Assembly: GCA_027492035.1 (NCBI GenBank)
Contig: JAOZFT010000015.1
Span: forward strand, 1 to 64,000
Reading direction: 5' to 3'
Source of the DNA: Thermoproteota archaeon
GTDB lineage: Archaea > Korarchaeota > JAOZGF01 > JAOZFZ01
Length of the DNA stretch: 64,000 bases
The first letter of the stretch is position 1. Every line of letters starts with the position of its first letter. Under the pieces are notes generated by a model. The model searched no databases. It saw nothing but the letters and a program-made list of their open reading frames with translations, and was not told where the DNA came from. Made by a program: the position numbers and the translations under genes. This document shows, in pieces, positions 25,975-52,374 of this stretch.

Positions 25975-26082
25975 CTAGCTTTCCCCTCTTTCATTTTTTG
26001 CTTTTTCTAGCAATGTTTCCTGGCCTTTAAAAGGTATTATTTAAGGTATCTGGGAAAAAATAGAGGAAGGGTTTGTAGGGGA

Positions 26083-26784: not shown

Positions 26785-26797
26785 TCCTATATTCACC

Positions 26798-27538: not shown

Positions 27539-27643
27539 AAAAACACTCCTCACACCTGTCATTGCATATTTTTGGGGGATGAATTTAAAAAAAATGGGCA
27601 TCTGAATTTTATTTATTTTTTTCTCTCCATATTTGGTTGATGT

Positions 27644-34263: not shown

Positions 34264-36111
34264 TTGGTGATGAAGTTGCATGGTTGGAATGGTAAAATCT
34301 TAAGGGTGAATCTATCTAGCTCGAAAGTATCTGTTCAAAAGTATGGGGCAGATTTTGCTTTGAAATTCATTGGAGGCAGGGGATTCGCAGTTAAGATTTT
34401 ATGGGATGAACTTAAATCTGGGGTGGATGCTCTCTCTCCATTGAATAAACTTGTTATAGCTGCTGGTCCGTTAACAGGTCTACCTGGGCCAAGTACAGGT
34501 AAACTTGTGCTTGCAGCTAAAAGCCCTTTAACGAATGGGTATGGAGACGGGAACATAGGTGGGTTAGCAGCTGTGCATTTAAGAAAAGCAGGTTATGATG
34601 CTTTAGTAATTGAAGGAAAAGCTGAAAAACCTTCCTACTTATATGTAGAAAACGAAAATGTAAGTTTGTTAAGTGCTGACGGTATATGGGGGGAGACAAC
34701 ATTTAAGGCTGAAAATAAATTGAGAGAGGTTCATGGGAGGAATATAGGGGTTTTAGTAATTGGACCAGCAGGAGAGAACCTGGTTAAATACGCAACTGTA
34801 ATTTCTCAAGAGGGAAGGGCTGGTGGAAGGCCGGGTATAGGTGCAGTTATGGGTTCAAAGAATCTAAAAGCCATTGTGCTTAAAGGAACAAAGGAAATTT
34901 CTTTAGCAGACCCAAAAAAACATAAAGAAACAGTGAAGGAATGTTACAAATCTATACAGGAAAACGAGAATTATTCTTTCTGGGTGAGACAGGGAACCAT
35001 GGGTGTAGTGGAGTGGTGTCAAGAAAACAGTACACTGCCCACTTTTAATTTCAGAGAAGGAGTTTTTGAGTTTTCAAGGATGATTGACGGTTACACTATG
35101 GAAGCCATGAAAATAAGTAGAAGGGGGTGCCCTAACTGTAACATGATGTGTGGAAATGTGGTTGTTGATTTGGAGAGAAAAGATTCTGAGTTAGATTACG
35201 AAAACGTAGCAATGCTTGGTTCAAACATTGGTTTAGGTCACCTGGGAAAAGTTTCGGTTTTAAATAGGTTAGCTGACGAATACGGAATAGATACGATTTC
35301 ATTGGGTTCAAACTTAGCTTTTGCAATGGAGGCTACAGAGAAAGGTTTATGGAAGGATGGAATTGAGTGGGGAGACTTCGAAGCTGCAAAAGCACTCGTT
35401 GAAGACATTACATATCGCAAAGGTCAAGGTAACCTGTTAGCTGAAGGAGTAAAAAGGGCTTCTGAAGAACTGGGTGGTGGATCTGAACAATGGGCTATTC
35501 ACGTTAAAGGACTTGAAGTTTCTGCTTATGACTGTCATACAGCCCCTGGAATGGCTCTAGCTTACGGCACTTCACCAATAGGTGCCCACCATAAAGATGC
35601 ATGGGTTATTTCATGGGAAGTAAGCACAAACAGGTTAGGATATGGAAAAGAAAAAGTTGATAAAGTAATAGAATTCCAAAGGATCCGTGGAGGAATGTTT
35701 GAAACGTTAGTCGCCTGCAGACTCCCATGGATAGAGCTTAATTTCAGTCTTGAGTGGTACGTGAAGTTGTTTAAAACAGTTACGGGTATAAGTTTAACAT
35801 TGAATGAACTGGCTGGAACCGTTGCAGACAGGATTTATTGTTTAATGAGAGCTTTCTGGGTTAGAGAGTATGGTGAAAAGTGGAACAAAGAAATGGACTA
35901 TCCACCATCCAGATGGTTCAATGAACCATTAACTAAAGGGCCTTTTAAAGGAGGAAAGCTGGACATGAAAAAGTATGAAGAAACACTTTTGCTGTACTAC
36001 CGAGAGAGGGGGTGGGATGAACGAGGCATCCCCAAAAAAAGTACCTTTGATAAATTGGGTCTCCAAAAGGAAGCAGTTGAACTTGGTAAACATGTCTCTT
36101 TAATCCCCTGA
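34264..36111 (+). CDS. aor: Tungsten aldehyde:ferredoxin oxidoreductase
   Basis: [65 protein letters not shown]. Confidence 0.93.
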
Positions 36112-37743: not shown

Positions 37744-39027
37744 TTAAAGTGTAGGGATAGTTATTGAACCATAGGGAACAACTAACACTTCAGCGTCTCT
37801 ACCTTGTAGTTGAAAAGCCTTGTTTAACGCCTCCTCTACTGTATCTTCTCTTTTGAAACCGAATACTGAAAGATCCTCATTTGAAAGGTTACCGGAAACA
37901 ACAGACACGTTAACTTTCTCTCTTAAAAATGAAAGTTCATAAACCATGCATCCTAACACACTTGAAAGCCTCCCCTCCTCAACTAAATTCAGGATATCTT
38001 CAGGTTTCAGGGAGAAAATCTCCTTTTCATGTTTAATAATGTGCTCGGAAACTCCTTCATAGCATGGTGAAACATAAATTAAGGAACCGTTATCCTTAAT
38101 GATTGGTTCAACTGATGCAAGAGCTCTTGTACCTCCCTGTAGAAAACTTACGTCATGTTCTTTGAATCCGCTGCTGCACACAACAATATCTGCTTTTCCT
38201 GGAGATTTTATCCTTGCAAATTCATCAAGTTTCTTTACTCCTTCCCGATGAGCCTTTACTATGTCTCCAGAAACAACTTCCACTATTTTTTTCTTATGGT
38301 TCAGGACAGTGTTCACAACCATGTCCACGTTTGTTTTTGAACCTGCTTCTTCTATATCTTCCCTGACTAAGTTCCCTTTCAATACCCCAAATAAACTTGA
38401 CCTTTTAATTTTGGCTAAAACCTTTGTAAATAATGAATGATTTTTCTCTATTGTTTCTCGGCTTGAAACACCTGGCAGAACAGTTTTAGCTCCCCCTGAA
38501 TAACCTGCAAGCATACATGGAGTTATATTACCTGTAATTATCTTTATTTCCGCTTCAGCAAAGTCCTTATTAACTTTTAAAGGAGTCAAGTTAGCTGTAA
38601 CCCCTAAATAAACATTTGTTTCGCTATCCGGGTCATGATTAAACACCTTTACCTTCCCAATAACTTCCTCTCCCACATTTCTCTTTATTAGCTCCATCGA
38701 ATCAGGTCGATGGAGACCTGTAGCAATAATCACTTTCAGATTTTCATACTTAACTCCCCTACCGTGAAGTTCTTTTAGGAGCACCGATAAAATTTCTTTA
38801 TTAGGTGTGGGCCTTGTACTATCTGTTACAGCTATGGCTACATCCTTCCCCTTTAAATTTTGTGAAAAAAGTGAATTTTTGCCTACTGGGTTATTTAACG
38901 CCTTCTTCACTAATTCCTTCACTTTTACATCTTTAACTGTGTCCTTAGGTGTTAGAACCCCCTTAACATTTCCCCTATCTACAGTAAACTTTAAGAACGT
39001 TTCTCCATAGGGCACCTCCACTTCCAT
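37744..39027 (-). CDS. larA: LarA-family nickel-pincer racemase/epimerase
   Basis: DSTRPTP, ATGLHR, AGYSGGAK..PG, NH, VVPYG; the second catalytic His appears as Cys. Confidence 0.85.
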   Translation of the reverse strand: MEVEVPYGETFLKFTVDRGNVKGVLTPKDTVKDVKVKELVKKALNNPVGKNSLFSQNLKGKDVAIAVTDSTRPTPNKEILSVLLKELHGRGVKYENLKVIIATGLHRPDSMELIKRNVGEEVIGKVKVFNHDPDSETNVYLGVTANLTPLKVNKDFAEAEIKIITGNITPCMLAGYSGGAKTVLPGVSSRETIEKNHSLFTKVLAKIKRSSLFGVLKGNLVREDIEEAGSKTNVDMVVNTVLNHKKKIVEVVSGDIVKAHREGVKKLDEFARIKSPGKADIVVCSSGFKEHDVSFLQGGTRALASVEPIIKDNGSLIYVSPCYEGVSEHIIKHEKEIFSLKPEDILNLVEEGRLSSVLGCMVYELSFLREKVNVSVVSGNLSNEDLSVFGFKREDTVEEALNKAFQLQGRDAEVLVVPYGSITIPTL

Positions 39028-39212: not shown

Positions 39213-40265
39213 GTGAGTAAAGTGAGTAATAGAGTAAAAATAATAATGTATGGGCTTGGCTACATGGGAAAAGAAATTGCTAAACTGTTACTGAAAAAGA
39301 AAGGGGTTGAAATAGTTGGTGCCATAGATATCTCTAAAGACATTGTTGGAAAGGATTTAGGAGAAGTTTTAGGGGTAAAAAAAGATTTAGGTGTAACTGT
39401 GACTGACGACTCCAAATCTCTTCTTTCAAAAGTTGAGTCAGACATAGTTGCGCATGCAACAACTTCCTATTTAACTCAAACATTTTCGCAAATATCTGAA
39501 TGCGTAATGGAGGGTTTTAATGTCATATCTACATGTGAAGAACTCTCTTACCCTTTCAAAAAACATCCTGAACTTGCAAATAAGCTTGACAGGTTAGCTA
39601 AAGAAAACGGTGTAACAGTTTTAGGTACAGGGATAAACCCCGGTTTCTTAATGGACACTTTACCAATAGTGTTAACTGGGCTTTGTCAAGACGTTAAAAA
39701 GGTGAAAGTGACCAGGATGATGTATTCAGGTAACCGTAGAATACCTTTCCAGAAAAAGATAGGTACAGGGCTTTCCCCTAACGAATTTAAGCAAAAAATT
39801 GAGAAGAAAGAAATAACTGGACATGTTGGTTTAAACGAATCAATTGCACACATTGCCGCTGCTCTAGGATGGGAACTGGAAAAAATAGTGGAAGAACCTC
39901 CTGAACCTATAATTGCAGAAAAAGAACTTAAAACAAGCTATACTACAGTAAAAAGGGGCCAAGTTGCAGGGTTAAAAAGTGTAGGTAGAGGATTAATTCA
40001 AGGGAGGGAAGTCATAACTTTGGAGTTTATTTCCCATGCAAGCGTCGAGGAACCATATGATGAGGTAATAATTGAAGGTACTCCTTCAATACATGAAAAG
40101 ATAATTGGTGGAGTTCATGGAGACCTAGGTACAGTGGCAATGGTGGTTAATATGATACCTAAAGTGATTAACGCAAGGCCTGGATTGTTAACAATGAGAG
40201 ATATGCCTCTACCCTCAGCTGTGCTAGAAGATATGAGAATTTACTTAGAATGGGAAACTCCTTAA
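39213..40265 (+). CDS. 2,4-diaminopentanoate dehydrogenase (Ord)/amine-dehydrogenase family
   Basis: YGLGYMG, ISTCEELSYP, GTGINPGFLMD, GHVG, GDLGT..VNMIPKV. Confidence 0.8.
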   Translation: MSKVSNRVKIIMYGLGYMGKEIAKLLLKKKGVEIVGAIDISKDIVGKDLGEVLGVKKDLGVTVTDDSKSLLSKVESDIVAHATTSYLTQTFSQISECVMEGFNVISTCEELSYPFKKHPELANKLDRLAKENGVTVLGTGINPGFLMDTLPIVLTGLCQDVKKVKVTRMMYSGNRRIPFQKKIGTGLSPNEFKQKIEKKEITGHVGLNESIAHIAAALGWELEKIVEEPPEPIIAEKELKTSYTTVKRGQVAGLKSVGRGLIQGREVITLEFISHASVEEPYDEVIIEGTPSIHEKIIGGVHGDLGTVAMVVNMIPKVINARPGLLTMRDMPLPSAVLEDMRIYLEWETP

Positions 40266-40294
40266 CTTTTAAACTAAACAGGGGCTTGTAGGAG

Positions 40295-42199
40295 TTGAGG
40301 AAAGCTGAAATAATAGCTAAAAATAATCCAGGGGAAAAAGTTTTATTGCTCGGTAACGAAGCAGTTGCTAGGGGCGCTATTGAAGCAGGGATTCAAGTCG
40401 CTACATCTTACCCAGGAACACCTGCATCCGAGATCCTTTCAACCATAGCATCTGTAGCTAATAAATTTAATATTCACGCAGAGTGGTCAACAAACGAAAT
40501 GGTTGCTTTTGAAACAGCTGCAGGGGCTGCAATGGCTGGGTTAAGATCAATGGTTTCACTGAAACATGTAGGGTTAAACTGGTGCGCTGACCCCTTAATG
40601 GCTATTAATCAATCAGGTATAAGTGGCGGTTTTGTAATAGCTGTAGCTGATGACCCTGGAGCCTATAGTTCACAAAATGAGCAAGACAGCAGGTATTACT
40701 CTAAAATGTCTGAATTATTGATGTTGGAACCTTGTGACGCAGCTGAAGCTAAAGAAGCTGTCAAGGAGGCATTTAATCTTTCAGAGAAACTTGAGTTACC
40801 TGTTTTCGTCAGACTTGTGAATCGGATATGTCACTCAAGGGCAGACATTACTTTAGGTCCCATAAAAACGGAGAAAAGGAAGGCTTCATTCAAAAGAGGG
40901 AGACGCTGGGTAATGATCGCTGGTAGCTCACCTGAAAGACACAAATGGCTCCATCAGAAACAAAGGGAAATAGAGGAAGTGGTTGGAAACCTCTGGCTTA
41001 ATAAACTTGAACTCAAAAAAGGTGAGTTAGGTATAGTTTCAGCAGGCGTCACTTACACATACGTTAAGGATGCACTTAACAAGTTAGGGTTAGATGGAGA
41101 AGTTAGTGTGTTAAAAATTGGGACATATCCTTCGCCGAGAAAACTTATAGAGCAATTACTAAAAAATGTCAAAAAAGTACTTGTTTTCGAGGAAGTGGAG
41201 CCTTTGGTTGAGAAGGAAATCAAAGAAATATGTTTCGATTTAGGTGTAAAACCGGTAGTTAGGGGGAAACTAACAAATGATGTGCAGAGAGAAAAGGACT
41301 TAAATGTGGATTCCGTATCTAAATCAATAGTTGAGGTTTTAAATATCAAACACAAGCATCTAAACCCTGTCAGAGATTCAGCTCTTAAAAAAGCTCAAGA
41401 AATCACTCCTCCAAGAAGACTTCTCATGTGCCCAGGATGTCCCCACACAGCAACTTTCTACATCATTAGGAAAGCAGGTTTTAAAGCCGCTAAGGGAAAA
41501 ATAATTTACTCCGGAGACATAGGTTGTTACTCTTTGGGATTTTATGCTTTTGAACCACCAAGACAGGACACTCAATTCTGCATGGGAGCAAGTATAGGTG
41601 TAGGTTGCGGATTAGCGCAAAGTGGTATAGAGGATGTGGTGGTGGCCACGATAGGTGACTCCACCATTATCCACGCTGGAATACCTGGCTTGATCAACGC
41701 CTCCTACAACAAAGCTAAACTTCTAATAGTGGTCTTTGACAACGGTGCAACTGCAATGACGGGCTTCCAGCCTCATCCAGGTACAGGTGTAACTGCTACA
41801 GGTGAAAAAACAAAGAAGGTGAATATAGAAGACATTGCAAAGGCTTGCGGAGTAGAATATGTAAAAGTAATAGACCCTTACAGCGTTGATGAATCAGTTA
41901 AAGTTGTAACTGAAGCCATGAAACAACCAGGTGTATCTGTTATTATTTCACGTAGACTTTGCATGCTTGAATGGCTTAGGAAAGCCAGAAGGGAAGGAAT
42001 GAAGAAAAAGCTCTACGAAGTTGATGTTGAGAAATGTACAGGCTGTAAAATTTGCGTAAATGAATTAGGGTGTCCAGCAATAGTTTTCGATCAGAGAAAC
42101 AATGTAGCAGCTATAGATGAAGTATTGTGCAACGGTTGTGGCGTATGCGCACAGGTCTGCCCTGTGGATGCAATTCACAAAATTAAAGAGGTGACTTAA
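40295..42199 (+). CDS. iorA: Indolepyruvate:ferredoxin oxidoreductase alpha subunit
   Basis: LLGNEAVARGA, YPGTPASE, KHVGLN, SQNEQDSR, CPGCPH, GDIGC, GDST TPP motif, two C-terminal ferredoxin motifs. Confidence 0.95.
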   Translation: MRKAEIIAKNNPGEKVLLLGNEAVARGAIEAGIQVATSYPGTPASEILSTIASVANKFNIHAEWSTNEMVAFETAAGAAMAGLRSMVSLKHVGLNWCADPLMAINQSGISGGFVIAVADDPGAYSSQNEQDSRYYSKMSELLMLEPCDAAEAKEAVKEAFNLSEKLELPVFVRLVNRICHSRADITLGPIKTEKRKASFKRGRRWVMIAGSSPERHKWLHQKQREIEEVVGNLWLNKLELKKGELGIVSAGVTYTYVKDALNKLGLDGEVSVLKIGTYPSPRKLIEQLLKNVKKVLVFEEVEPLVEKEIKEICFDLGVKPVVRGKLTNDVQREKDLNVDSVSKSIVEVLNIKHKHLNPVRDSALKKAQEITPPRRLLMCPGCPHTATFYIIRKAGFKAAKGKIIYSGDIGCYSLGFYAFEPPRQDTQFCMGASIGVGCGLAQSGIEDVVVATIGDSTIIHAGIPGLINASYNKAKLLIVVFDNGATAMTGFQPHPGTGVTATGEKTKKVNIEDIAKACGVEYVKVIDPYSVDESVKVVTEAMKQPGVSVIISRRLCMLEWLRKARREGMKKKLYEVDVEKCTGCKICVNELGCPAIVFDQRNNVAAIDEVLCNGCGVCAQVCPVDAIHKIKEVT

Positions 42200-42200
42200 T

Positions 42201-42821
42201 ATGGTTAAAAGAGAAATTGAAGAGTTCAATATTCTAATTGCAGGTGTAGGGGGGCAGGGTAACCTTTTATCTTCAGAAATAATAGCCACAGCTGCTGTGA
42301 AATCAGGTTTCAAAGTAAGAGTTGCTGATGTTTTCGGCGCTGCCCAGAGGGGAGGAAGTGTATTGAGCCATATCAGAATAGGTGAAAAAATCTTTAGCCC
42401 CGTTATTCCTGAACAAAACGCTAATGTACTTCTCGGTTTTGAACCTGTAGAATGCTTGAGGGCCGCAAAGTTTCTTTCACCCACTTGCGTAGCCATCGTT
42501 AACTTAAGGCCTATATATCCAAGGGATGTAGCCTTAGGGAAATTTAAGTACCCGAGTATCGAGGAAATAATTAATTTATTGAGGGAATTAGCCAATAAAG
42601 TTTTATCTAAAGACTTTATCTCCGTAGCAGAGAAGGCAGGGGACCCCATGACATTAAATGTCACAATGGTTGGGGCTTTAGCCAGTTTAAAAACTTTACC
42701 GATTGAGAAAGAAACTTTGCTGGAAGCTGTTAAAGAAGTTGTTCCTCCAAAAACCAAAGAAATGAACATTAGGGCCTTCAAAATGGGTTATGATGAAACA
42801 CTTAAAATCTTAAAGCCTTAA
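42201..42821 (+). CDS. iorB: Indolepyruvate:ferredoxin oxidoreductase beta subunit
   Basis: GVGGQG, GAAQRGGSVLSHIRIG, FEPVE, NIRAF..G. Confidence 0.95.
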   Translation: MVKREIEEFNILIAGVGGQGNLLSSEIIATAAVKSGFKVRVADVFGAAQRGGSVLSHIRIGEKIFSPVIPEQNANVLLGFEPVECLRAAKFLSPTCVAIVNLRPIYPRDVALGKFKYPSIEEIINLLRELANKVLSKDFISVAEKAGDPMTLNVTMVGALASLKTLPIEKETLLEAVKEVVPPKTKEMNIRAFKMGYDETLKILKP

Positions 42822-42852
42822 GCCCTTTTTCGATTTTTTGGAGGCGCCTGAA

Positions 42853-44373
42853 TTGCTCATGAATGGAAGAGAATATATAGAAAGTTTAAAGAAACTAAAA
42901 CCCAAAATTTACTGTTTCGGTAAAAGGGTAGAAAGCGTAGTTAACCATCCAATGTTTAAACCTCACATAACCGCAGCTGCAATGACTTACGAGTTGGCAC
43001 ATGACCCAGAGTACAAAGAAATAATGACAGCTAAATCTCCTTTCATAAAAGACGTGGTTAATCGTTTCACTCACATACATCAATCAACTGATGATTTAGT
43101 TAAGAAAGTTAAAATGATGCGTCTCCTCGGCCAAAGAACAGGGACATGTTTCCAGAGATGCGTAGGGTTAGATGCATTAAATGCTCTTTATGTAGTAACT
43201 TATGAAATTGATAAGAAGCATGGAACAAACTACCATAAAAGATTTATTGAATATCTTAAACATGTACAAAGGAAAGATTTAATGCCTGCCGGTGCAATGA
43301 CGGACCCTAGAGGAGTAAGAAGCTTAACTCCGCATGAACAACCTGATCCAGACTTATATGTTCATGTTGTTGAAAAAAATAAAGACGGAATAATAGTAAG
43401 AGGAGCGAAATGCCAAATAACAGGTACCGTGAACTCGCATGAAATAATTGCTTTACCAACTAGAACTATGAGAAAAGAAGATTCAGACTATTCAGTTGCA
43501 TTCGCTGTTCCAGTGGATGAAAAAGGAATTACTTTAGTGTTTGCGAGGCAAACAAACGATACAAGGAGATTAGAAACTGAAATCGATGTAGGAAATGCTA
43601 AATATGGTGTAGTAGGAGGGGAAACCCTAATAATTTTCGATGATGTTTTTGTTCCATGGGAAAGGGTTTTTATGTGCGGCGAGCACGAACACAGCTTAGA
43701 ACTTGTTGAGGCCTTCAGCAGCCACCACAGATCAAACTACGGAGGCTGCAAAGTTGGAGTGGCTGACGTAGCTATAGGAGCCTGTAAATGGTTGGCTGAT
43801 GCATACGGGTTAAGTAAAGTGTACCATATAAGAGACAAGTTAAGTGAAATGGTTCATTTAGCTGAAACATGTTGGAGCTGTTCTCTTGCATGTGCCTATG
43901 AGGGATATAAAACCAACTCCGGAGCCTACATGGTTAACACCTTGCTGGCGAACGTTGTCAAATTAAACATTACAAGAATGGTTTATGAATGGATGAGACT
44001 TGCTCAAGATATTACAGGTGGAACGGTGATAACTCTACCTTCTGAATTAGACTATAACCATCCTGAAATAGGGAAGTATATAGATAAGTTTTATCAAGTT
44101 AAAGAAGGGATTCCCACTGAGTACAGGCTTAGAATGACAAGGCTTGTTGAAAACATAGCTGTGGGTGCTGGTTTACCTGAGTCACTTCACGGCGCAGGAT
44201 CTCCCGGGGCGCAAAAAGTCATGATTGAAAGAAGAACAAATTTAGAAGAAAAAAAATCCTTTGCAGAAGTGATTGCAGGCATAAAGGGTGATAAGTACTT
44301 CAGAAAGATATGGGGAGTTTCTGAAGATGAATTTTTCGCTAAATTCCGTAAGAAAAGGAAGGAAAAGACGTAA
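42853..44373 (+). CDS. abfD: 4-hydroxybutyryl-CoA dehydratase ([4Fe-4S]/FAD)
   Basis: HQSTDDL.KKVKM.RLLGQ, CFQRCVG and HRSNYGGCKVG (three Cys + His cluster ligands), ESLHGAGSP; likely start TTG 42853 after GGAGG. Confidence 0.93.
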   Translation: MLMNGREYIESLKKLKPKIYCFGKRVESVVNHPMFKPHITAAAMTYELAHDPEYKEIMTAKSPFIKDVVNRFTHIHQSTDDLVKKVKMMRLLGQRTGTCFQRCVGLDALNALYVVTYEIDKKHGTNYHKRFIEYLKHVQRKDLMPAGAMTDPRGVRSLTPHEQPDPDLYVHVVEKNKDGIIVRGAKCQITGTVNSHEIIALPTRTMRKEDSDYSVAFAVPVDEKGITLVFARQTNDTRRLETEIDVGNAKYGVVGGETLIIFDDVFVPWERVFMCGEHEHSLELVEAFSSHHRSNYGGCKVGVADVAIGACKWLADAYGLSKVYHIRDKLSEMVHLAETCWSCSLACAYEGYKTNSGAYMVNTLLANVVKLNITRMVYEWMRLAQDITGGTVITLPSELDYNHPEIGKYIDKFYQVKEGIPTEYRLRMTRLVENIAVGAGLPESLHGAGSPGAQKVMIERRTNLEEKKSFAEVIAGIKGDKYFRKIWGVSEDEFFAKFRKKRKEKT

Positions 44374-44400
44374 CTTTCTCCTAAAAAATGTGATCGTAAA

Positions 44401-45786
44401 GTGACGCATTACAACCAGTTACTGCAGCAAGAAATAAGGAAATATAGGGAGAAAACAAGGAAATCAAGGAATCTTAATAACTTAGCACGGAGTCTCCTCC
44501 CGGGAGGAGACACAAGAACCGTAACTTACTTTAAACCTTATCCTCTTTATGTGAGAGAGGGATCAGGATACTTGGTTTGTGATGTTGACGGTAACAAATA
44601 CATTGATTTCCTTAACAACTACACTTCACTGGTGCACGGCCACCGTCACCCTAAAATTGTTGAGGCAATCAATAACCAACTTACCCATTTACAAGCAGTT
44701 CATGCCCCCACAGAAAAACAAATCGAGCTTGCTAAATTGATTTGTGAAAGATTTCCTTCAGTTGAAATGGTTAGGTTTATGAATTCAGGTACTGAAGCTA
44801 CAATGAACGCTATAAGACTTGCAAGAGCTTATACAGGGAAAAAGAAAATAATGAAAGCTGAGGGGGGTTACCATGGAACCCATGACTTTGCAATGATAAG
44901 TGTGCATCCTCCTTCGGAGAAGTATGGCTCTCTAAACAACCCTGAATCTGTTCCAGAGGATAAAGGGATACCTAAAGCTGTACTCAAAAACGTTATAGTC
45001 TTCCCCTTCAACAATTTCGAAGTCACTGAGAAATTAATAAAGAGAAACAAGGAAGAGTTGGCAGCTTTAATAGTTGAACCTATAATGGGAACAGCAGGCA
45101 TAATACCACCTGTAAAAGATTATTTAAAATTTCTCAGAGAAATAACAATTGACAATGACGTTTTATTGGTTTTCGATGAAGTAATTACTGCCAGACTAAG
45201 TAAGGGAGGTGCTCAGGAATATTTTAAGGTAGAACCTGACTTAACAGCCTCAGGGAAAATGTTCGGTGGCGGAACCCCTATTGGCTTAGTTGGAGGAAAG
45301 GAAGAAATTATGCAACTTTACTCCCCTGAGAGGAAAGAATTCTTATCTCAATCAGGAACTTTTAACGCAAACCCTGTAACCATGGCCGCAGGTGTTGCAA
45401 CACTTAAACTGTTAACAACCCAAGCTATAAAGAAAATAAACTCTTTAGGAGGATTCTTAAAGAAAAGAATTTCCAACTTATTTAGTGAATTTAGTGTTCA
45501 AATTAAGGTTACAGGTGTAGGCTCCCTCTTAAATATTCATTTCACAAATAAAGAAGTTTTAGATTACAGGAGTTCCTTAACAGCTGACAAGGATCTCCAC
45601 TTCCTACTTTACTTATCTTTACTCAACAGGGGAATCTGGATAGCCCCAAGATTAATGGCTAACATTTCCACTCCCATGTCTAACAGGGAAACTGAAAAAT
45701 TCCTTAAAACTTTAGGGGAAGTCTTAGTTTCTATTAAACCTGCAATTGAAGAGAAAGCTCCCCACTTAATAAACAAAGAAATGTAG
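44401..45786 (+). CDS. Class III PLP aminotransferase (GSA-aminomutase-like)
   Basis: DVDGNKYIDF, NSGTEA, GGYHG, FDEVIT, SGKMFGGG, SGTFNANP. Confidence 0.9.
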   Translation: MTHYNQLLQQEIRKYREKTRKSRNLNNLARSLLPGGDTRTVTYFKPYPLYVREGSGYLVCDVDGNKYIDFLNNYTSLVHGHRHPKIVEAINNQLTHLQAVHAPTEKQIELAKLICERFPSVEMVRFMNSGTEATMNAIRLARAYTGKKKIMKAEGGYHGTHDFAMISVHPPSEKYGSLNNPESVPEDKGIPKAVLKNVIVFPFNNFEVTEKLIKRNKEELAALIVEPIMGTAGIIPPVKDYLKFLREITIDNDVLLVFDEVITARLSKGGAQEYFKVEPDLTASGKMFGGGTPIGLVGGKEEIMQLYSPERKEFLSQSGTFNANPVTMAAGVATLKLLTTQAIKKINSLGGFLKKRISNLFSEFSVQIKVTGVGSLLNIHFTNKEVLDYRSSLTADKDLHFLLYLSLLNRGIWIAPRLMANISTPMSNRETEKFLKTLGEVLVSIKPAIEEKAPHLINKEM

Positions 45787-45859: not shown

Positions 45860-46762
45860 TTAGGATATTCTGTATCTGGGATGGCTTTTTGGAAGTTTAA
45901 TCTTTTCCTCTATTAACAATTGGCCGAAGGAAGCATCTACCAAACTTATTGCTGGGAACATGTATTCTGCGTCTCTTAATGGGCCGTACAATATGAAATC
46001 AGCTCCTAAAGCTGTGGGAAGTATACATGAAGAAGCTGTAGAAGCTATTACTCCTTCTTGGCTTATTTTCTTCTTCAACCCTTTCCACTGACTTACTGCA
46101 TTATGGGCTCCGCAGCCGGCTGGAACACCGAATTTATCCTTTATTTCAAATAAAGCCTTTGTAGCCATTCCAAGAGTTGGTATGTCCAGTACTGTTGTGT
46201 CTACCAGAATGTTTTCTAATCCAAGTTCCTCAGCCTTCTTTATTAATTCCCCAGCTACTTCAACTCTTCCTTTTGAGGAAATTATTGCTTTCATTCCGTA
46301 AGTTAGTAACACTGCACTTTTTAAACCAACCTCTTTCACTTTGTTTAAAACAACTTCTTTTGTTTCTGGAGTTATTGAGTTCAGAATTATTCTAGACAAC
46401 AAACCTGTTTCGTTTGAATACTCTAACCCTTCAACCATTGTTTCATTACTTAATCCATCTAAAAGCAAAGGAACATCTGAATTGTTAGCTGTGAAATCTA
46501 AAAATTTTTTCATAGCCTCAGGAGTTGTCCCTACAACATCCAGCATTAAAGGTAAACCTGTTAAATCAGACATTTCCAAGGCTTTACTTAACTCTTCCCC
46601 GGCTTCTTCTTCATTAAACACTCCCTTGTCAGGGTCATTAACTACCCTATGTCCTCTGTAAAAGATACTTCCTATTAACACTGTCGGATTCTCCCCAGGA
46701 TTTCCCCCCAACTTGATGCCTCCTATTTCAACAATTTTTTGTTTAGCTTTAAATTTCCACAT
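45860..46762 (-). CDS. mtrH: Stand-alone MtrH/MtgA-type methylcorrinoid:H4MPT(or THF) methyltransferase
   Basis: GGNPGENPTVLIGSIFY.GH, GVF, GCGAHNA, GADFILYGP; no other mtr subunits nearby. Confidence 0.9.
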   Translation of the reverse strand: MWKFKAKQKIVEIGGIKLGGNPGENPTVLIGSIFYRGHRVVNDPDKGVFNEEEAGEELSKALEMSDLTGLPLMLDVVGTTPEAMKKFLDFTANNSDVPLLLDGLSNETMVEGLEYSNETGLLSRIILNSITPETKEVVLNKVKEVGLKSAVLLTYGMKAIISSKGRVEVAGELIKKAEELGLENILVDTTVLDIPTLGMATKALFEIKDKFGVPAGCGAHNAVSQWKGLKKKISQEGVIASTASSCILPTALGADFILYGPLRDAEYMFPAISLVDASFGQLLIEEKIKLPKSHPRYRIS

Positions 46763-46902
46763 CCAAAAACCCCTCTTCTACTCTTTCACTAAGTGAAGGA
46801 GAAAGTAAAGATTGAACCTAAAAAAACAAATACAGTTCTTTTTTTAGAAAAACTTTAGGAAGGTGCTGTTGCGAAAAAAGGTAAAAAAGCTAAAGAATTA
46901 AT

Positions 46903-48360
46903 TTAGTGAACAACTTCTTTAGCTGCACTTTTGATCACTTTGTCTATTTCATCTACTACATCCTTGGGTAAAGGTGTAACTTCGTGTTCCTTCAATATTT
47001 TTCTGGCTTTCTCTCTAGCCTTCTTCGTCAAGTCTTTGCCTCCTTCACTTATCCACTTCCTCCAAGAGGATTTGCTTAATAGATCAGTTAGGTAATGTTC
47101 CTGTTTAAAAAGTTTCCTTGTGTGTTTAAGGCTTAAATAACTTCCTGCATGACCTGCTTCCTTTATAGCTTCAACTGCTAAAGTTTCTTCATTTACTTCA
47201 ACTCCCTGCAACAATCTTTTAATCATCCCTATTAATTCATCACAAATCACAATGAAATCAGCGCTGCACAGCAAACCTGAGTCCATGTAGCCTATATCAT
47301 GGATAAGGTTTTGGCCACTTAAAGCAGCTGCTGCTATATAAAGCGCCGCTTCAGCAGCTGCTTGTGCATCAGTTAATTTAGAATCTGTACACCCTGTAGT
47401 TCCCCAAAGGGGAATATCGTAGTAGTGAGACATCTGGGCGAGCATGACAGCCATCAATAAAGTTGACGCTGTTGTATAAGAAGTTACAGCGTATTTCATA
47501 TCTAGAACCAAAGGCACCCCACCGTAAATGAAGGGGGTACCTGGGTTTAACAATTGAATTATAACGTTTCCTCCCAAGGATTCGGCGCTTGTTTGAACCA
47601 CTGAACCTGCAAGAGTGACAGGGGCAGTTGCCCCGCTTTGTGTGCAAGGGGCCCAAACAATTGGCAATCCCTTCTTAACCCATTCAAATAATGCCTCAAT
47701 GTAATCCCTGCCGAAAATTAATGGGGATTGTGGTTCATCGTATAAGGTAACTATTGGTTTCCTTCTCAGTTCTTCTTCACCCCCGGCTACGAGTTCAGCT
47801 ATTTTTATTTGCAGTTTCGTTAACTCTGCACCATGGTAACTGTACATTACAAAATGTTTTTCGGTATTAAGCAGTACAGCTTTTTCTTCATATAACCCCA
47901 TTAAGCCAGAAGGAGCGTCGCTAGCTGTACCTGAACCCATTGCAAAGTCAATATTTTCTAATGCATCCCCTAACCTAGTTAGTTCCTCCATGTCCTTGAA
48001 TGTGCACCTTCTCCTTTCACCTGTTTCAAGGTCTAAAACATAGGTTTGACCGCTTCCTGTACCAAAATATGTCCTTAACCCTTCAAGAACAAAGTCGTAT
48101 TTTGGGTTCCTACCGTATAACCTAATTGTTTTGGGGGCCTTTTTAATTGATTCTTCAACTAAGTACTGAGGTATCTTAGCGATTTTAGTTTTAAAATCAA
48201 CGTCAGCTCCTGCATCCTTAAGGAGTTTTAAAGCCCCTTCATGTTCAATTTTTATTCCGTGCTGTTCCAGAACTTTCAACACTGCCAAATGTATATCGTA
48301 TATTTGGTCATTAGTTAAAATTTTGAGCTGCCCCCCCTTTAATCCACCCCTCATTCTCAT
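46903..48360 (-). CDS. mttB: MttB-superfamily methyltransferase, pyrrolysine-free (copy 2)
   Basis: GATAPVTLAGS, PGTPFIYG, TDSKLTDAQA, NLIHDIGY; Cys (47389-47391) at the Pyl-equivalent site. Confidence 0.92.
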   Translation of the reverse strand: MRMRGGLKGGQLKILTNDQIYDIHLAVLKVLEQHGIKIEHEGALKLLKDAGADVDFKTKIAKIPQYLVEESIKKAPKTIRLYGRNPKYDFVLEGLRTYFGTGSGQTYVLDLETGERRRCTFKDMEELTRLGDALENIDFAMGSGTASDAPSGLMGLYEEKAVLLNTEKHFVMYSYHGAELTKLQIKIAELVAGGEEELRRKPIVTLYDEPQSPLIFGRDYIEALFEWVKKGLPIVWAPCTQSGATAPVTLAGSVVQTSAESLGGNVIIQLLNPGTPFIYGGVPLVLDMKYAVTSYTTASTLLMAVMLAQMSHYYDIPLWGTTGCTDSKLTDAQAAAEAALYIAAAALSGQNLIHDIGYMDSGLLCSADFIVICDELIGMIKRLLQGVEVNEETLAVEAIKEAGHAGSYLSLKHTRKLFKQEHYLTDLLSKSSWRKWISEGGKDLTKKAREKARKILKEHEVTPLPKDVVDEIDKVIKSAAKEVVH

Positions 48361-49013
48361 CCCTTCCCAATTAACCTTTTAGCTACTTCAACTGCTTCTG
48401 TAGCATCTGCTCCATGTCCATCAGCCCCTATTTCCTCAGCCCATTCAGGACTTGTAGGGGCTCCTCCAACTATAACTTTGTACTTATCCCTTAACCCCCT
48501 CTTTTTAAGTTCCTCGATGAGTTTCTTCTGGACAGGCATTGTAGTGGTTAATAATGCAGAGGCACCTATTATGTCAGCACCGTTTTCTTCAGCTGCTTTA
48601 ATGAAGTTTTCAGGAGGTTGGTCGTTGCCTATCTGAATCACCCTGAAACCTGCTGCCTGAAGCATTGAAGCAACTATCCTCTGCCCTATATCATGTATAT
48701 CCCCCTCAACTGTACCTATCACAATTGTTCCTACGTATTCAGCTTTCTCCTTTGATTTCTCCAATGCAGGCCTCAAAACAGTCATAACACTGTTCATAAC
48801 CTCAGCTGACCCAACTAAATCCATCAAAAATATTTCTCCCCTCCCAAACTTATCCCCTATCTCTTTCAATTTTTTTGATAATGCATTCACAAGTTCAACA
48901 GGGCTCATGCCACGTTTTTCAAGTAATTCCTTAGCTAACTCGTCAGCACCCTCCGGTTCAGCTTCATCAAGTCTCTTCAACAACTCGTTAAGCACATCTT
49001 CTTTAGTGGACAC
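48357..49013 (-). CDS. Corrinoid (B12-binding) methyltransferase cognate protein
   Basis: GTVEGDIHDIG (DxHxxG), SALLTTT, VGGAP..IGADG; overlaps mttB by 4 bp. Confidence 0.93.
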   Translation of the reverse strand: MSTKEDVLNELLKRLDEAEPEGADELAKELLEKRGMSPVELVNALSKKLKEIGDKFGRGEIFLMDLVGSAEVMNSVMTVLRPALEKSKEKAEYVGTIVIGTVEGDIHDIGQRIVASMLQAAGFRVIQIGNDQPPENFIKAAEENGADIIGASALLTTTMPVQKKLIEELKKRGLRDKYKVIVGGAPTSPEWAEEIGADGHGADATEAVEVAKRLIGKG

Positions 49014-49209: not shown

Positions 49210-49965
49210 TCATAAATAAATTCTTGTCGGGTCCAGTTCCCTTAAAACCCTAATTTCAGCTTTTTTTGGTTCAGGAGTTGTCTTAAGCTCCTCTGAAACT
49301 TTTAGCTTCCACCCTGTATTTTCTTGCACTTCTTCAAGTGTCACTTTCGGATGAAGTTTTTCTACAACCAATTCCCCGTATCTATTGTGAAGAGATAACA
49401 CGCATAAATCAGTTATTACTTTTATTTCTCTCACTTCTTTATTTGTCTCTAAACTTTCCTCTTCTTTTTTCAGCTGTTTCCCTGGACTCGTTAAGAAATC
49501 AAGCTTGTTAACAAATCTCCTTTTTTGATGAGGCGTAATTATTAATATTTTCTTCACCAAATGAGCTATGTCGCAGGCTCCTCCACTTCCAGGCAATCTA
49601 ACTTTTGGTTTCCTGTAATCCCCTATCACAGTTGTGTTTATGTTTCCAAACTTATCAATTTGTGCCCCTCCTAAAAAACCAACATCCACACGTCCAGGTT
49701 GAAGGTAGTAACCGAAGACTTCAAACATGGAACAGACACTTTCTGAATTGGTCACTATGCAAGGGTCTCCTATTGAAAGAGGAAGTCTTGAAGGCTTAGC
49801 CCCTACTACTCCTGATTCATAGATCATTACCAACTTAGGGGCGTGAAGCCTTTTAGCTAAGTTACATGCAAGGTTGGGTAAACCCACCCCCACCAAAACT
49901 GTTTCTCCGTTTCTAAGTTCTCTTGCGGCTGTAACAACCATTAATTCGTTTCTGCCGTAATCCAT
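49210..49965 (-). CDS. CoA-transferase subunit B (GctB/CatJ type)
   Basis: VGVGLP, IYESG (catalytic Glu), GGAQIDKFGNINTT, RLPGSGGA. Confidence 0.9.
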   Translation of the reverse strand: MDYGRNELMVVTAARELRNGETVLVGVGLPNLACNLAKRLHAPKLVMIYESGVVGAKPSRLPLSIGDPCIVTNSESVCSMFEVFGYYLQPGRVDVGFLGGAQIDKFGNINTTVIGDYRKPKVRLPGSGGACDIAHLVKKILIITPHQKRRFVNKLDFLTSPGKQLKKEEESLETNKEVREIKVITDLCVLSLHNRYGELVVEKLHPKVTLEEVQENTGWKLKVSEELKTTPEPKKAEIRVLRELDPTRIYL

Positions 49966-49978
49966 TTTTCCTTCACCT

Positions 49979-50893: not shown

Positions 50894-51326
50894 TCAAATC
50901 TTCCTCTTGAGGCTTAAACTTGAAACCGTATCTAATGACCCCTTCGTCTTCATAGATTCTTCTAAGTACTGCCTTAACCCTCATTCCTATTTTTACTTCT
51001 CCAGGCTTACAATCCGTTAATTGAGCAACTATCCTAGGTCCTTCATCTAAGTCAACCAATGCAACAACGTATGTGCCCCCATATTTTTCTTGTTTAGAGA
51101 ATTCAGGGGGGGCAGCTGCAGCTGATATTACAGTGTAAGAGTATATTGTTCCTTTCCCACTTAACTTAACTTTTTCAAAATCAAGGGATTCCTTACAGTT
51201 CTTACATACTCCTTTAGGGGGAAAATTTATCCATCCACACTTTTTACATCTTAATCCTACTAGCCCATACCTTTGAGGAATTGTTCTTTTATAGAGCGGA
51301 ACCGAAACATAGGCCAAAAAAGACAC
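50886..51326 (-). CDS. DUF35 Zn-ribbon/OB-fold protein (thiolase partner)
   Basis: CKKCG..FPPK..CKNC, GTIYSYT, VALVDLDEG, YGFKF. Confidence 0.92.
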   Translation of the reverse strand: MSFLAYVSVPLYKRTIPQRYGLVGLRCKKCGWINFPPKGVCKNCKESLDFEKVKLSGKGTIYSYTVISAAAAPPEFSKQEKYGGTYVVALVDLDEGPRIVAQLTDCKPGEVKIGMRVKAVLRRIYEDEGVIRYGFKFKPQEEDLNG

Positions 51327-51348
51327 CTCCCTAAATTTCTTGAATACC

Positions 51349-52359: not shown

Positions 52360-52374
52360 CCCTTTCCACCTTTC

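Follow-up and report, generated by a model that had tools for sequence, protein, structure and literature searches.

An amine dehydrogenase, an indolepyruvate-type 2-oxoacid:ferredoxin oxidoreductase (IorAB), a 4-hydroxybutyryl-CoA dehydratase homologue (AbfD) and a class III omega-transaminase are encoded side by side in the window (the whole 64,000-nucleotide stretch of DNA that was analysed), and our preferred reading, held tentatively, is that of a lineage-specific, probably co-transcribed catabolic cassette assembled from two known kinds of module rather than one linear pathway. Five plus-strand ORFs fill positions 39213-45786 exactly (Table 1), closely spaced and co-oriented as the first-pass annotation had described, with gaps of 29, 1, 16 and 27 bp in gene order when the longest-ORF starts are taken, IorB beginning 1 bp past the IorA stop, and profile matches bear out the family-level identities proposed for them. 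The order IorA-IorB-AbfD-transaminase recurs in a related genome (G001; protein identities of 80, 76, 81 and 72%), so this arrangement is not a one-off of the assembly. The source of the cassette is an uncultured hot-vent archaeon.

Table 1. Positions of the cassette genes and of the neighbouring features discussed in the text.
Feature	Position	Strand	Evidence or remark
Second half of a module found with the amine dehydrogenase in other archaea	18974..27601		four parts, listed below
Luciferase-like oxidoreductase, probably F420-type	18974-20047		
Amdase/Asp-Glu-racemase-like protein	20059-20781		
Class III transaminase AT2	20809-22116		
LIV-type ABC transporter	22216-27601		
Tungsten-type aldehyde:ferredoxin oxidoreductase (AOR)	34264..36111	+	AFOR_C 382, AFOR_N 251 bits
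EamA exporter/transporter	36854-37726	-	
LarA-family (nickel-pincer) 2-hydroxyacid racemase homologue	37744..39027	-	Lar_N 185 bits; divergent from amine dehydrogenase
NAD(P)-dependent amine dehydrogenase, DapB_N/DAP_DH_C fold ('Ord-like')	39213..40265	+	DapB_N + DAP_DH_C matches
IorA, TPP- and [4Fe-4S]-binding alpha subunit	40295..42199	+	TIGR03336
IorB, beta subunit	42201..42821	+	PF01558, TIGR03334
IorB-AbfD spacer	42822..42852	+	T5 42826-42830, T6 42834-42839, GGAGG 42840-42844
AbfD, 4-hydroxybutyryl-CoA dehydratase / vinylacetyl-CoA isomerase homologue	42838..44373	+	HpaB_N + HpaB
Class III HemL/GSAM-like omega-transaminase	44401..45786	+	Aminotran_3
Methyltransfer genes convergent on the cassette	45860..49013	-	three genes, listed below
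MtrH-like methyltransferase	45860-46762	-	
MttB-family methyltransferase	46903-48360	-	
Corrinoid protein	48357-49013	-	
Convergent neighbour unit	49210..53544	-	thiolase to CoA-transferase
Family I CoA-transferase, subunit B	49210-49965	-	
Family I CoA-transferase, subunit A	49979-50893	-	
DUF35/ChsH2-OB protein	50886-51326	-	
Condensing-enzyme-like protein	51349-52359	-	336 aa
Thiolase	52375-53544	-	

The first module would comprise the amine dehydrogenase and the extra IorAB, and would start from an imported amino acid. Its oxidative deamination with NAD(P)+ would give a 2-oxoacid, which IorAB would convert, with CoA and ferredoxin, into an acyl-CoA one carbon shorter, as is usual in archaeal peptide fermentation. 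The second module, transaminase plus AbfD, would lead from a C4 amine to crotonyl-CoA, the substrates and the direction of flux being predicted in both cases. The transaminase would produce succinate semialdehyde from 4-aminobutyrate or from a betaine demethylated by the adjacent corrinoid/MttB systems, and enzymes outside the cassette (candidates are the luciferase-like oxidoreductase and an Fe-ADH on contig C21) would carry it to 4-hydroxybutyrate. Activation of this acid by the family I CoA-transferase (49210-50893) or an AMP-ligase would supply AbfD with 4-hydroxybutyryl-CoA for conversion to crotonyl-CoA, which would be processed further by a crotonase, a 3-hydroxybutyryl-CoA dehydrogenase and a thiolase, or by the products of Bcd/Etf genes elsewhere. 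Genes lying 1-37 bp apart usually share one pathway, which counts against splitting the cassette in two.

The unsplit alternative, which we regard as unlikely, is a direct route in which a C5 2-oxoacid derived from proline or ornithine (Δ1-pyrroline-2-carboxylate/5-amino-2-oxopentanoate, or 5-hydroxy-2-oxopentanoate) would be converted by IorAB into 4-aminobutyryl- or 4-hydroxybutyryl-CoA and then by AbfD into crotonyl-CoA, the HemL-like transaminase working on either the CoA ester or the oxoacid's omega-amine. If true, it would be a new way to crotonyl-CoA, joining ATP-free CoA activation to ferredoxin reduction. One point in favour of such a route is the paralogue status of IorAB. IorA exceeds the TIGR03336 cut-off (724.2 against 650.9 bits), as does IorB that of TIGR03334 (215.6 against 205.8 bits; PF01558, 127.9 bits), and the genome holds two more IorA genes (C9, 745 bits; C30, 675.5 bits), giving a total of three compared with four in G001 and one in most genomes of the phylum. 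The only match above 47% to the cassette IorA among 43 genomes of the phylum is that of G001 (G001:C95, 80%), and the cassette protein belongs to a distinct subfamily with members of 52-75% identity in metagenomes. Judged by sequence, this IorAB is thus an extra, lineage-specific paralogue confined to the AbfD-bearing family, a restriction that favours the direct route and for which the two-module reading offers no reason. On the other hand, true AbfD is absent beside the subfamily members of 58% and 52% identity, which speaks against the direct route, and the 58% member, from a Bathyarchaeia genome, has a class I/II aminotransferase gene after it, with DAO genes and an ABC transporter on the flanks, an amino-acid-to-acyl-CoA setting that counts for a composite of two modules.

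Conservation of the Ior-AbfD linkage, which the first-pass annotation had proposed to search for, turned out to be limited. Direct adjacency is kept in G001, the sole genome of the same family, and is therefore not absent in all relatives; none of the 80 metagenomic or 14 Bathyarchaeia AbfD loci shows it, which weighs against the direct route. The short IorB-AbfD distance (16-37 bp here, 55 bp in G001, with the same gene order) argues for it. So do a proline racemase, a DAO-type dehydrogenase and an OCD/Pyr2C-reductase homologue encoded 5-10 kb upstream of the cassette, and OCD genes divergent from AbfD in an unrelated set of metagenome contigs (L111, L133, L134 and L172), in one of which (L134) IorAB lies 2.6 kb downstream of AbfD on the same strand. 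That IorA is, however, only 38% identical and outside the cassette subfamily, and between it and AbfD lie an IclR and an FrhB-like gene. Moreover, 4-aminobutyryl-CoA should readily cyclise to 2-pyrrolidone, the C5 oxoacid is mainly a cyclic imine, and the route calls for a carbonyl reductase, for which the cassette offers at most the amine dehydrogenase; all three points weigh against it. Also against it, excerpts of the literature searched by the names of these acids describe no Ior reaction on C5 oxoacids. In its favour, a passage on T. litoralis states that D-proline may give rise to Pyr2C (PMC4141209), and the excerpted description of Kat offers a precedent for aminoacyl-CoA as the substrate of a HemL-like enzyme (PMC3149608).

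The two enzymes of the second module fit their predicted roles to different degrees. AbfD, single-copy in the genome, matches HpaB_N (344 bits), HpaB (203 bits), PDB 1u8v, which is the C. aminobutyricum AbfD (566 bits, E 5e-169), and 6vjr (500 bits). By hand count in the alignment, the cluster ligands C99, C103, H292 and C299 and the catalytic T190, E257, Y296 and E455, eight functional residues taken from a published passage, are all identical to those of C. aminobutyricum AbfD, so that the four [4Fe-4S] ligands were rightly called intact at first sight and the four catalytic residues can be added to them. The closest PDB structure to the transaminase is 6k8h (369 bits), an S. thermophilus omega-TA acting on beta- and gamma-amino acids, followed by beta-transaminases and GSAMs; this match, together with the complete set of AbfD residues, argues for the two-module reading. 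GabT models count against it, with about 145-149 bits on the transaminase for cut-offs of 506-724. The transaminase was also considered as the genome's own HemL, and rejected: it falls below the cut-offs of hemL TIGR00713 (401.4 against 527.3 bits) and NF000818 (381.8 against 398), and a stronger candidate exists on C20 (455 bits; NF000818 447.8, over 398). The earlier description as GSA-aminomutase-like holds in that it is a HemL/GSAM-like class III enzyme, a type that includes Kat according to the excerpted text of PMC3149608.

Conventional helper genes beside the cassette (family I CoA-transferase, thiolase and DUF35), on C21 (the Fe-ADH adjoining an AOR, plus a CaiB-type CoA-transferase) and on C9 (crotonase, HBD, acyl-CoA DH and Etf), together with two AMP-ligases in the genome, also favour the two modules, as does the conventional company of AbfD in the 80 metagenomic loci, where AMP-ligase, Fe-ADH, AOR, SDR/TetR and acyl-CoA dehydrogenase recur, with AOR homologues in the fetched flanks of nine. 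Conventional means of supplying 4-hydroxybutyryl-CoA are encoded in the genome, in part close to the cassette (CoA-transferase, AOR, alcohol dehydrogenases, ligases), a point against the direct route. The AOR of the window may convert succinate semialdehyde or another aldehyde into the corresponding acid and back, and the convergent thiolase to CoA-transferase unit is a candidate for both the CoA donor step and a crotonyl-CoA/acetoacetyl-CoA sink; thiolase and DUF35 genes also adjoin AbfD in L011 (G020) and in two Bathyarchaeia loci (L237, L238). In 1 of the 14 Bathyarchaeia loci (L242) the divergent neighbour of AbfD is a class III transaminase gene, which speaks for the two modules. The corrinoid, MttB and MtrH genes are a possible source of demethylated amine. 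MtrH comes after the transaminase in G001 too, 3 of the 80 metagenomic loci (L139, L146, L151) have MttB and corrinoid genes close to AbfD, and GABA from a demethylated C4 betaine, initially given as an alternative, fits the surroundings at least equally well. Against the two modules, no specific model assigns a succinate-semialdehyde reductase in the genome (the C21 Fe-ADH reaches 188.6 bits with NF058672, cut-off 500), and an AbfT-type 4-hydroxybutyrate CoA-transferase (PF13336) was not found in this 93%-complete genome, the latter result favouring the direct route.

The neighbouring unit also bears on a Kat-like role, in which the transaminase would turn 3-aminobutyryl-CoA into acetoacetyl-CoA in a variant lysine fermentation, with the adjacent AtoDA-like CoA-transferase and thiolase as partners and AbfD and IorAB as unrelated neighbours. 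The convergence of the two gene sets would suit it, and excerpts of PMC3149608 describe Kat as a class III enzyme of HemL-like type whose gene in 'Ca. Cloacamonas' co-localises with that of acetoacetyl-CoA thiolase, a supplementary figure legend naming an AtoA/AtoD complex. With neither a BKACE/Kce family gene found in the 93%-complete genome nor an OraE/lysine-aminomutase-type large subunit (only B12-domain matches to corrinoid proteins), this role seems very improbable.

The first gene matches PF19328 (166.6 bits) and, among PDB structures, best 7xdu (283 bits) and AmDH4 (6g1h/6g1m, 250 bits), whose E102, R161 and F168 correspond in the alignment to its E109, R168 and R175; E109, E110, R168, R175 and R176 are invariant across 26 sequences of its clade. 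Native amine dehydrogenases of group G1 are set apart by Arg at P12, a position that Phe occupies in G2 (true Ord), and a G1 enzyme is the most likely assignment. The ornithine-pathway Ord was ruled out because no OraE was found in the genome, by Arg in place of Phe and by a score below the cut-off of NF040740 'ornith_Ord' (346.9 against 400 bits). G1 enzymes, in which a negatively charged group at P12 has been inferred, gave no activity on the substrates that the authors hypothesised (PMC11164908).

This charge, with R168, R175 and R176 invariant, would suit an internally redox-balanced network from glutamate or proline to crotonyl-CoA, which seems to us rather improbable. The dehydrogenase, its two invariant Arg binding a dicarboxylate, would act like a glutamate dehydrogenase and IorAB would convert 2-oxoglutarate into succinyl-CoA, whose CoA the family I CoA-transferase would move to 4-hydroxybutyrate; the AOR would draw on the ferredoxin reduced by IorAB to turn succinate into succinate semialdehyde, an alcohol dehydrogenase would make 4-hydroxybutyrate with the NAD(P)H of the dehydrogenase, AbfD would dehydrate the CoA ester, and the transaminase would join 4-aminobutyrate to succinate semialdehyde, its 2-oxoglutarate being recycled by the dehydrogenase. 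All the required enzyme classes lie inside 20 kb, PF01144 is the succinyl-CoA:3-oxoacid transferase family, and the dehydrogenase gene adjoins an Asp/Glu-racemase-like gene in L192-L195 and a D-glutamate-cyclase-like gene in G007. However, IorA exceeds the IOR equivalog cut-off, IORs are not known to use 2-oxoglutarate, five other OFOR alpha subunits in the genome can cover this substrate, and the inactivity of the G1 enzymes on the hypothesised substrates may also count against the network.

In other archaea the dehydrogenase belongs to a separate module, in support of the two-module reading. Neither Ior nor AbfD ever adjoins its homologues of 55-66% identity (7 Korarchaeota and 30 Bathyarchaeia loci), and the gene stands beside Ior/AbfD in none of 31 Bathyarchaeia loci (1.5 kb flanks) and none of the 11 Korarchaeota loci that come from other genomes than the present one. 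Its company consists of an ABC transporter, an Amdase-like gene, a class III transaminase and LarA: the order ABC transporter - Amdase-like - Ord-like is found in four Korarchaeota genomes (L192-L195), in three of which (L193, L194, L195) a LarA-like gene lies 2 kb away, and of the 31 Bathyarchaeia loci, 5 have an adjacent Amdase-like gene and about 8 an AT2-like transaminase. The LarA-EamA/Ord-like arrangement is retained in G001 (72, 74 and 81% identity), and the LarA homologue scores below the cut-off of the malate-racemase model NF052593 (335 against 500 bits).

Finally, the TTG at 42838 that is listed as the AbfD start overlaps with a T-run, and the position of GGAGG suggests that the true start is probably TTG 42853 or ATG 42859, which would widen the IorB-AbfD gap to 31-37 bp. 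Oligo-T is a termination signal in archaea, and the spacer possibly combines a terminator or attenuator of this kind with a ribosome-binding site. The matching 55-bp spacer of G001 likewise has a T6 run, and the T-runs of both genomes, which would allow two transcription units, speak for the two-module reading.

The five co-oriented, closely spaced genes that the first-pass annotation had described, encoding an amine dehydrogenase, IorA, IorB, AbfD and a class III transaminase, are all present in the ORF list with matching Pfam and NCBIfam assignments (see table), and they sit inside a 35-kb catabolic island (Pfam/NCBIfam annotation) on contig 8 of a 1.87 Mb assembly. By the listed starts, the intergenic gaps across this cassette are 29, 1, 16 and 27 bp, in agreement with the gaps of about 30 bp or less proposed before. 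The listed TTG start of AbfD falls, however, on a T6 run, with a GGAGG motif at 42840-42844, so that 42853 or 42859 is the more likely start, in which case the IorB-AbfD spacer would be 31-37 bp long, carrying T5 and T6 runs. Each component belongs to a known family or is closely related to one, and the unusual features are the OFOR-AbfD junction and, secondly, the probable G1 amine dehydrogenase that heads the cassette. Neither a description of an OFOR-AbfD junction nor a report of an Ior reaction on C5 oxoacids was found in a literature search judged mostly by titles and abstract openings.

Coordinates of the cassette genes, of the surrounding genes and of features in compared loci (L numbers)
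Feature	Coordinates	Strand or orientation	Assignment or position
DapB_N/DAP_DH_C dehydrogenase	39213-40265	+	Pfam and NCBIfam; NF040740 'Ord' 346.9 bits, cut-off 400
IorA	40295-42199	+	TIGR03336 724.2 bits, cut-off 650.9
IorB	42201-42821	+	TIGR03334 215.6 bits, cut-off 205.8
HpaB-fold protein, AbfD	42838-44373	+	HpaB_N 344 bits, HpaB 203 bits
Class III aminotransferase	44401-45786	+	hemL model 401.4 bits, cut-off 527.3
Luciferase-like oxidoreductase, Amdase/Asp-Glu-racemase-like, class III transaminase AT2, LIV-type ABC transporter	18974-27601		upstream of cassette
Luciferase-like oxidoreductase	18974-20047	-	probably F420-dependent
Luciferase-like oxidoreductases in compared loci	L123:7900-8991; L147:3314-4369; L238; L245; L251:13381-14526
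MttB homologue, proline-racemase family, DAO-type dehydrogenase, OCD/mu-crystallin homologue, AOR	27743-36111		upstream of cassette
AlaX-like protein	31745-33034	+	tRNA-synt_2c fragment, tRNA_SAD and DHHA1 domains
EamA transporter and LarA-family racemase		divergent from first gene	upstream, last before cassette
MtrH-like, MttB, corrinoid genes, then CoA-transferase A/B, DUF35, condensing-enzyme-like, thiolase	45860-53544	convergent	downstream of cassette
Thiolase, condensing-enzyme-like, DUF35, family I CoA-transferase A/B unit	49210-53544	-	gaps -8 to 22 bp
Small ORF after AbfD	L105:11607-12089; L134:11564-11899; L148:11535-11879; others	same strand as AbfD
HpaB/AbfD-family protein	L251:14547-16022	-	anaerobic Bathyarchaeia genome
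Transaminase homologue and following genes	L014:3237-8140		Bathyarchaeia contig
Repeat of ~70 bp	L190:9845-9918		G001 contig 2

The HpaB-fold protein matches the AbfD of C. aminobutyricum (1u8v) with 566 bits over residues 6-483. The [4Fe-4S] ligands C99, C103, H292 and C299 (C. aminobutyricum numbering), previously noted as intact, are indeed all four identical in the alignment to 1u8v (hand count), as are the CFQRC and H-x6-C motifs and all four of T190, E257, Y296 and E455, residues that sections of the AbfD literature report as important for dehydratase activity. By its domains, full-length match and ligands, this protein is a predicted 4-hydroxybutyryl-CoA dehydratase. AbfD is a radical enzyme of GABA and succinate fermentation and of two archaeal CO2-fixation cycles. 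The dehydratase of the 4-hydroxybutyrate cycle of Nitrosopumilus maritimus (6VJR) belongs to the same family (500 bits), but the window AbfD is closer to the clostridial enzyme and, unlike in those cycles, its setting is catabolic (transporters, transaminases, methyltransferases), with no carboxylase or CO2-fixation cycle genes found near it. Among 41 related genomes, AbfD occurs in four, which are the window genome, the only other genome of its family (G001) and two further relatives (G020 and G023), and in none of the 34 genomes of the largest family.

The GABA fermentation of C. aminobutyricum proceeds through a GABA transaminase, glutamate dehydrogenase, the 4-hydroxybutyrate dehydrogenase AbfH, the CoA-transferase AbfT and the dehydratase AbfD. 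The window resembles this system in its AbfD with identical ligands and catalytic residues, in the class III transaminase and the NAD(P)-dependent deaminating dehydrogenase of the same putative operon, and in the downstream crotonyl-CoA enzymes found in the genome. On the other hand, the clostridial route lacks IorAB, which in the cassette lies between the dehydrogenase and the AbfD/transaminase pair; the window dehydrogenase probably belongs to the G1 native amine dehydrogenases and is not a GDH; the transaminase is HemL-like and not GabT-like; and neither an AbfT-type transferase nor a model-assigned 4-hydroxybutyrate dehydrogenase was detected in the window genome, which is 93% complete.

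A HemL function of the cassette transaminase was rejected, since it scores below the cut-offs of both TIGR00713 and NF000818 (381.8 against 398 bits) and since a paralogue on contig C20 of the same genome, which passes the second of these (447.8 bits), is a better HemL candidate. A GabT-type 4-aminobutyrate transaminase was also rejected, with all curated GabT cut-offs (506-724 bits) missed at 143.8-149.1 bits. The best solved match is the omega-transaminase of Sphaerobacter thermophilus (6K8H, 369 bits), which, as well as Kat (likened here by description only), is a HemL/GSAM-like class III enzyme, as is the cassette transaminase. The relevant part of PMC3149608 indicates that this HemL-like type can accept an aminoacyl-CoA, Kat being a 3-aminobutyryl-CoA:2-oxoglutarate transaminase. 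A Kat-like role in a variant lysine fermentation is unlikely, since profile searches of the window genome gave no match to Kce/BKACE (PF05853), and no aminomutase large subunit of the lysine aminomutase type was found in them either. In 79 other genomes, homologues of the cassette transaminase (40-52% identity) are surrounded by unrelated genes, and a search of 80 such loci, from Dehalococcoidia, Methylomirabilota/Rokubacteria and one Bathyarchaeia, found no Ior or AbfD by the transaminase except on the G001 contig. The closest homologue outside the family (L014, 52%) shows a different pairing, the next genes encoding succinyl-CoA-synthetase-like beta and alpha subunits and an HpcH/HpaI (malyl-CoA-lyase-like) protein.

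In the fermentations and CO2-fixation cycles named above, a CoA-transferase or a ligase makes the substrate of AbfD. The window genome encodes several candidate CoA activators, namely a family I CoA-transferase (3.4 kb away from the cassette), a CaiB-type transferase (contig C21) and two AMP-ligases. The candidate semialdehyde reductases are an Fe-ADH beside an AOR on C21 and the luciferase-like oxidoreductase of the window, neither of which is given a specific assignment by any model. The latter could be the missing semialdehyde reductase; a luciferase-like oxidoreductase lies near AbfD in 2 of 14 Bathyarchaeia loci, and the one linked to IorAB in L251 is 50% identical to that of the window. 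As sinks for crotonyl-CoA, the genome contains a crotonase, a 3-hydroxybutyryl-CoA dehydrogenase, an acyl-CoA dehydrogenase with Etf and thiolases. Tentatively, and at somewhat less than even chances, we regard the locus as a composite cassette of two catabolic modules. The dehydrogenase and IorAB would make an acyl-CoA from an imported amino acid, and the omega-transaminase and AbfD would take a C4-amine through succinate semialdehyde, 4-hydroxybutyrate and 4-hydroxybutyryl-CoA to crotonyl-CoA. This second branch would be completed by genes outside the cassette, and the corrinoid methyltransferase systems next to it would be a plausible source of its substrate. If so, the locus would be an ordinary mosaic of known catabolic modules.

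As in the IorAB of archaeal peptide fermenters, both cassette subunits score above the NCBIfam IOR equivalog cut-offs, and TPP-binding and two-cluster ferredoxin domains are present in the alpha subunit (no IOR structure was found among the PDB entries searched). In contrast to them, the cassette IorA is one of three in its genome and belongs to a separate subfamily. It is 41-43% identical to its own paralogues, on contigs C9 (745 bits, with IorB beside it and otherwise unrelated genes around) and C30 (675.5 bits). With three paralogues in the genome and the C9 copy in such a setting, a role as the only or housekeeping IOR was discarded; the cassette IorAB is, by sequence, an extra paralogue. 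IorA occurs in 41 of the 43 genomes of the phylum, mostly as a single match of 39-47% identity, and only the one on contig C95 of G001 reaches 80%. In the protein database, the cassette IorA heads a distinct subfamily with a metagenomic tier at 64-75% (P0124-P0137) and another at 52-59% (P0138-P0162, including an Acidoferrales bacterium, Bathyarchaeia and Promethearchaeota), beyond which the bulk of archaeal IorA matches at 50% or less. A redox-balanced scheme, running via glutamate, 2-oxoglutarate and succinyl-CoA, would use every nearby gene of the window, but would need IorAB to take 2-oxoglutarate even though five further OFOR alpha subunits are encoded in the genome, and we hold it to be quite improbable.

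Two loci of this IorA subfamily offer other neighbourhoods. In L251 (IorA 58%), a class I/II aminotransferase and a luciferase-like oxidoreductase come after IorA and IorB, and on the flanks lie two DAO genes, an ABC transporter and a gene for an HpaB-family protein. The latter is 31% identical to the window AbfD but lacks three of the four Fe-S cluster ligands, and is therefore not an AbfD. L252 (IorA 52%) has genes for a Zn-ADH, a luciferase-like protein and an AOR in the vicinity.

With regard to the conservation of the arrangement, the order IorA-IorB-AbfD-transaminase is kept in G001, followed by a convergent MtrH gene on an 8.2-kb contig (identities of 80, 76, 81 and 72%). On another contig of G001, DAO, EamA and LarA genes precede a divergent dehydrogenase (81%) that lies 280 bp from the contig end. 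Positions 1-46 of C95 match positions 9930-9975 of G001 contig 2 at 96%, with a repeat just upstream, so the two pieces are probably adjacent; dehydrogenase and IorA would then be neighbours in G001 too, separated by at least ~450 bp as compared with 29 bp in the window. The repeat, of ~70 bp, lies just downstream of the G001 dehydrogenase, where the assembly breaks before IorA; further copies, 78-83% identical, are present on contigs 34, 146, 155 and 223, and it could be a MITE-like element.

Outside the window's family, immediate Ior-AbfD adjacency was not found in any of the 80 transaminase, 80 metagenomic AbfD and 14 Bathyarchaeia AbfD loci examined, nor in G020. The metagenomic loci (AbfD 60-67% identity) show no dehydrogenase or operon-type transaminase by AbfD; the Bathyarchaeia loci (52-60% identity, ±9 kb) contain neither IorA nor the dehydrogenase; and no Ior or dehydrogenase lies beside the three AbfD genes of G020. 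IorAB was found within the flanks of three of the 80 metagenomic loci: in L127 and L130 it is 8 kb from AbfD on the opposite strand, and in L134 it is 2.6 kb downstream on the same strand, separated from AbfD by IclR and FrhB-like genes (its IorA is 38% identical). The idea of an IorA clade common to AbfD-linked loci found no support, since the IorA of these three loci are 37-38% identical to that of the cassette, less than its own paralogues.

This distribution bears on the route proposed by the first-pass annotation, in which IorAB would oxidatively decarboxylate a proline- or ornithine-derived C5 2-oxoacid directly to 4-hydroxy- or 4-aminobutyryl-CoA for AbfD. In an extended form of this route, the extra paralogue would have been recruited for that step, the transaminase would act on the omega-amine or the CoA ester, and the G1 dehydrogenase would deliver the oxoacid or trim it. 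In favour of the direct route are the close spacing of IorB and AbfD in two genomes, an extra Ior paralogue confined to the lineage, the lack of a detected AbfT and the proline/Pyr2C genes upstream, and L134 adds the sole independent support, a weak one. The route would, however, need a reductase outside those assigned and, from general chemistry, would pass through unstable intermediates. We consider it unlikely, if less so than the scheme through 2-oxoglutarate. If true, it would provide an ATP-free, ferredoxin-reducing entry to the step from 4-hydroxybutyryl-CoA to crotonyl-CoA, and would for the first time place a G1 native amine dehydrogenase in a physiological setting; an OFOR making the substrate of AbfD would be a new energy-saving way from C5 amino acids into C4 acyl-CoA metabolism.

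The first gene had been described as Ord-like; its assignment as a canonical Ord of ornithine fermentation does not hold. In Ord (G2), a Phe at pocket position P12 forms the methyl pocket of 2,4-DAP. The gene product has the same fold as the G2 and G1 enzymes and, aligned with AmDH4 (6g1m), keeps the catalytic Glu (E102, here E109) and R161 (here R168), with Met in place of N163 and Arg-Arg (R175, R176) in place of Phe-Gly at 168-169; E109, R168, R175 and R176 are invariant among 26 aligned clade sequences. In addition to Arg175 at AmDH4 Phe168 and a score below the NF040740 cut-off, no OraE was found: in the window genome, NF040743 for the D-ornithine aminomutase large subunit (OraSE) gave only B12-domain matches that do not exceed 52.7 bits (cut-off 800), all to corrinoid-type proteins. 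As described in sections of PMC11164908, native amine dehydrogenases split into groups, of which G2 is the true 2,4-DAP dehydrogenase and G1 (1,427 models) has Arg at P12 instead of the Phe of G2 and keeps Arg at P9 and His at P15. We infer that AmDH4 Phe168 is P12, the text of that paper giving no residue number. Compared with the G1 description, an indel of four residues displaces the His in the first gene, and the clade has either H or Y there.

The same sections state that the substrates of this large group 'are still not known' to its discoverers, genomic-context analysis having given no clear evidence. Homologues of the first gene at 60-70% identity come from Bathyarchaeia, Korarchaeum and Njordarchaeota, and its clade is found in 159 of 301 Bathyarchaeia genomes (E ≤ 1e-60) and in 17 of the 43 genomes of the window's phylum (E ≤ 1e-40). 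Four Korarchaeota loci (L192-L195) show the order ABC-transporter genes, Amdase-like gene, dehydrogenase, with a LarA-like gene 2 kb from the dehydrogenase in three of them (L193-L195); at the G007 locus, a solute-binding protein heads the transporter, and D-glutamate-cyclase-like (PF14336) and DUF2848 genes lie between dehydrogenase and LarA. Among 31 Bathyarchaeia loci (1.5-kb flanks), the genes adjoining the dehydrogenase include an Amdase-like gene five times, an AT2-like class III transaminase about eight times, an ABC ATPase twice and a LarA-like gene once, and never IorA or AbfD. These consistent neighbours indicate that the dehydrogenase belongs to a widespread module, which in the window is split between 18974-27601 and 37744-40265. 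Since PMC11164908 reports no clear context signal, the recurrent set may help to find the G1 substrate; the LIV-type ABC transporter, Asp/Glu-racemase-like, AT2-like and, sometimes, LarA genes, and here IorAB, provide assay candidates for these orphan enzymes, and this is the most valuable by-product of the analysis.

Other associations were observed around AbfD. Its neighbours among 84 loci include AMP-ligase (12), SDR/TetR (20), acyl-CoA dehydrogenase (10) and luciferase-like oxidoreductase genes (8), counts that are lower bounds because many loci are incomplete. Directly 3' of AbfD, 58 of the 84 have a small ORF on the same strand (~105-160 aa, no Pfam match at 1e-6), whose position is occupied by the transaminase in the window and G001, and which may encode an undescribed AbfD partner or maturation factor. 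In the 80 metagenomic loci, an OCD gene is divergent from AbfD in L111, L133, L134 and L172, and AOR (9/80), MttB with corrinoid (3/80) and LarA-like genes (2/80) are found near it. Thiolase and DUF35 genes lie near AbfD in L011, L237 and L238, and an AT2-like transaminase in L242.

Within the window itself, the proline-type gene set includes the AlaX-like gene, which has the DAO-type dehydrogenase on one side and the OCD homologue on the other. The thiolase, the 336-aa condensing-enzyme-like protein (a weak ACP_syn_III_C match only), DUF35 and the family I CoA-transferase A/B are encoded in a single compact unit, which shares its strand with the corrinoid/MttB/MtrH genes and lies upstream of them. 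A thiolase/HMG-CoA synthase/DUF35 complex exists in archaea, which the first three of these genes appear to resemble, but here joined to a CoA-transferase.
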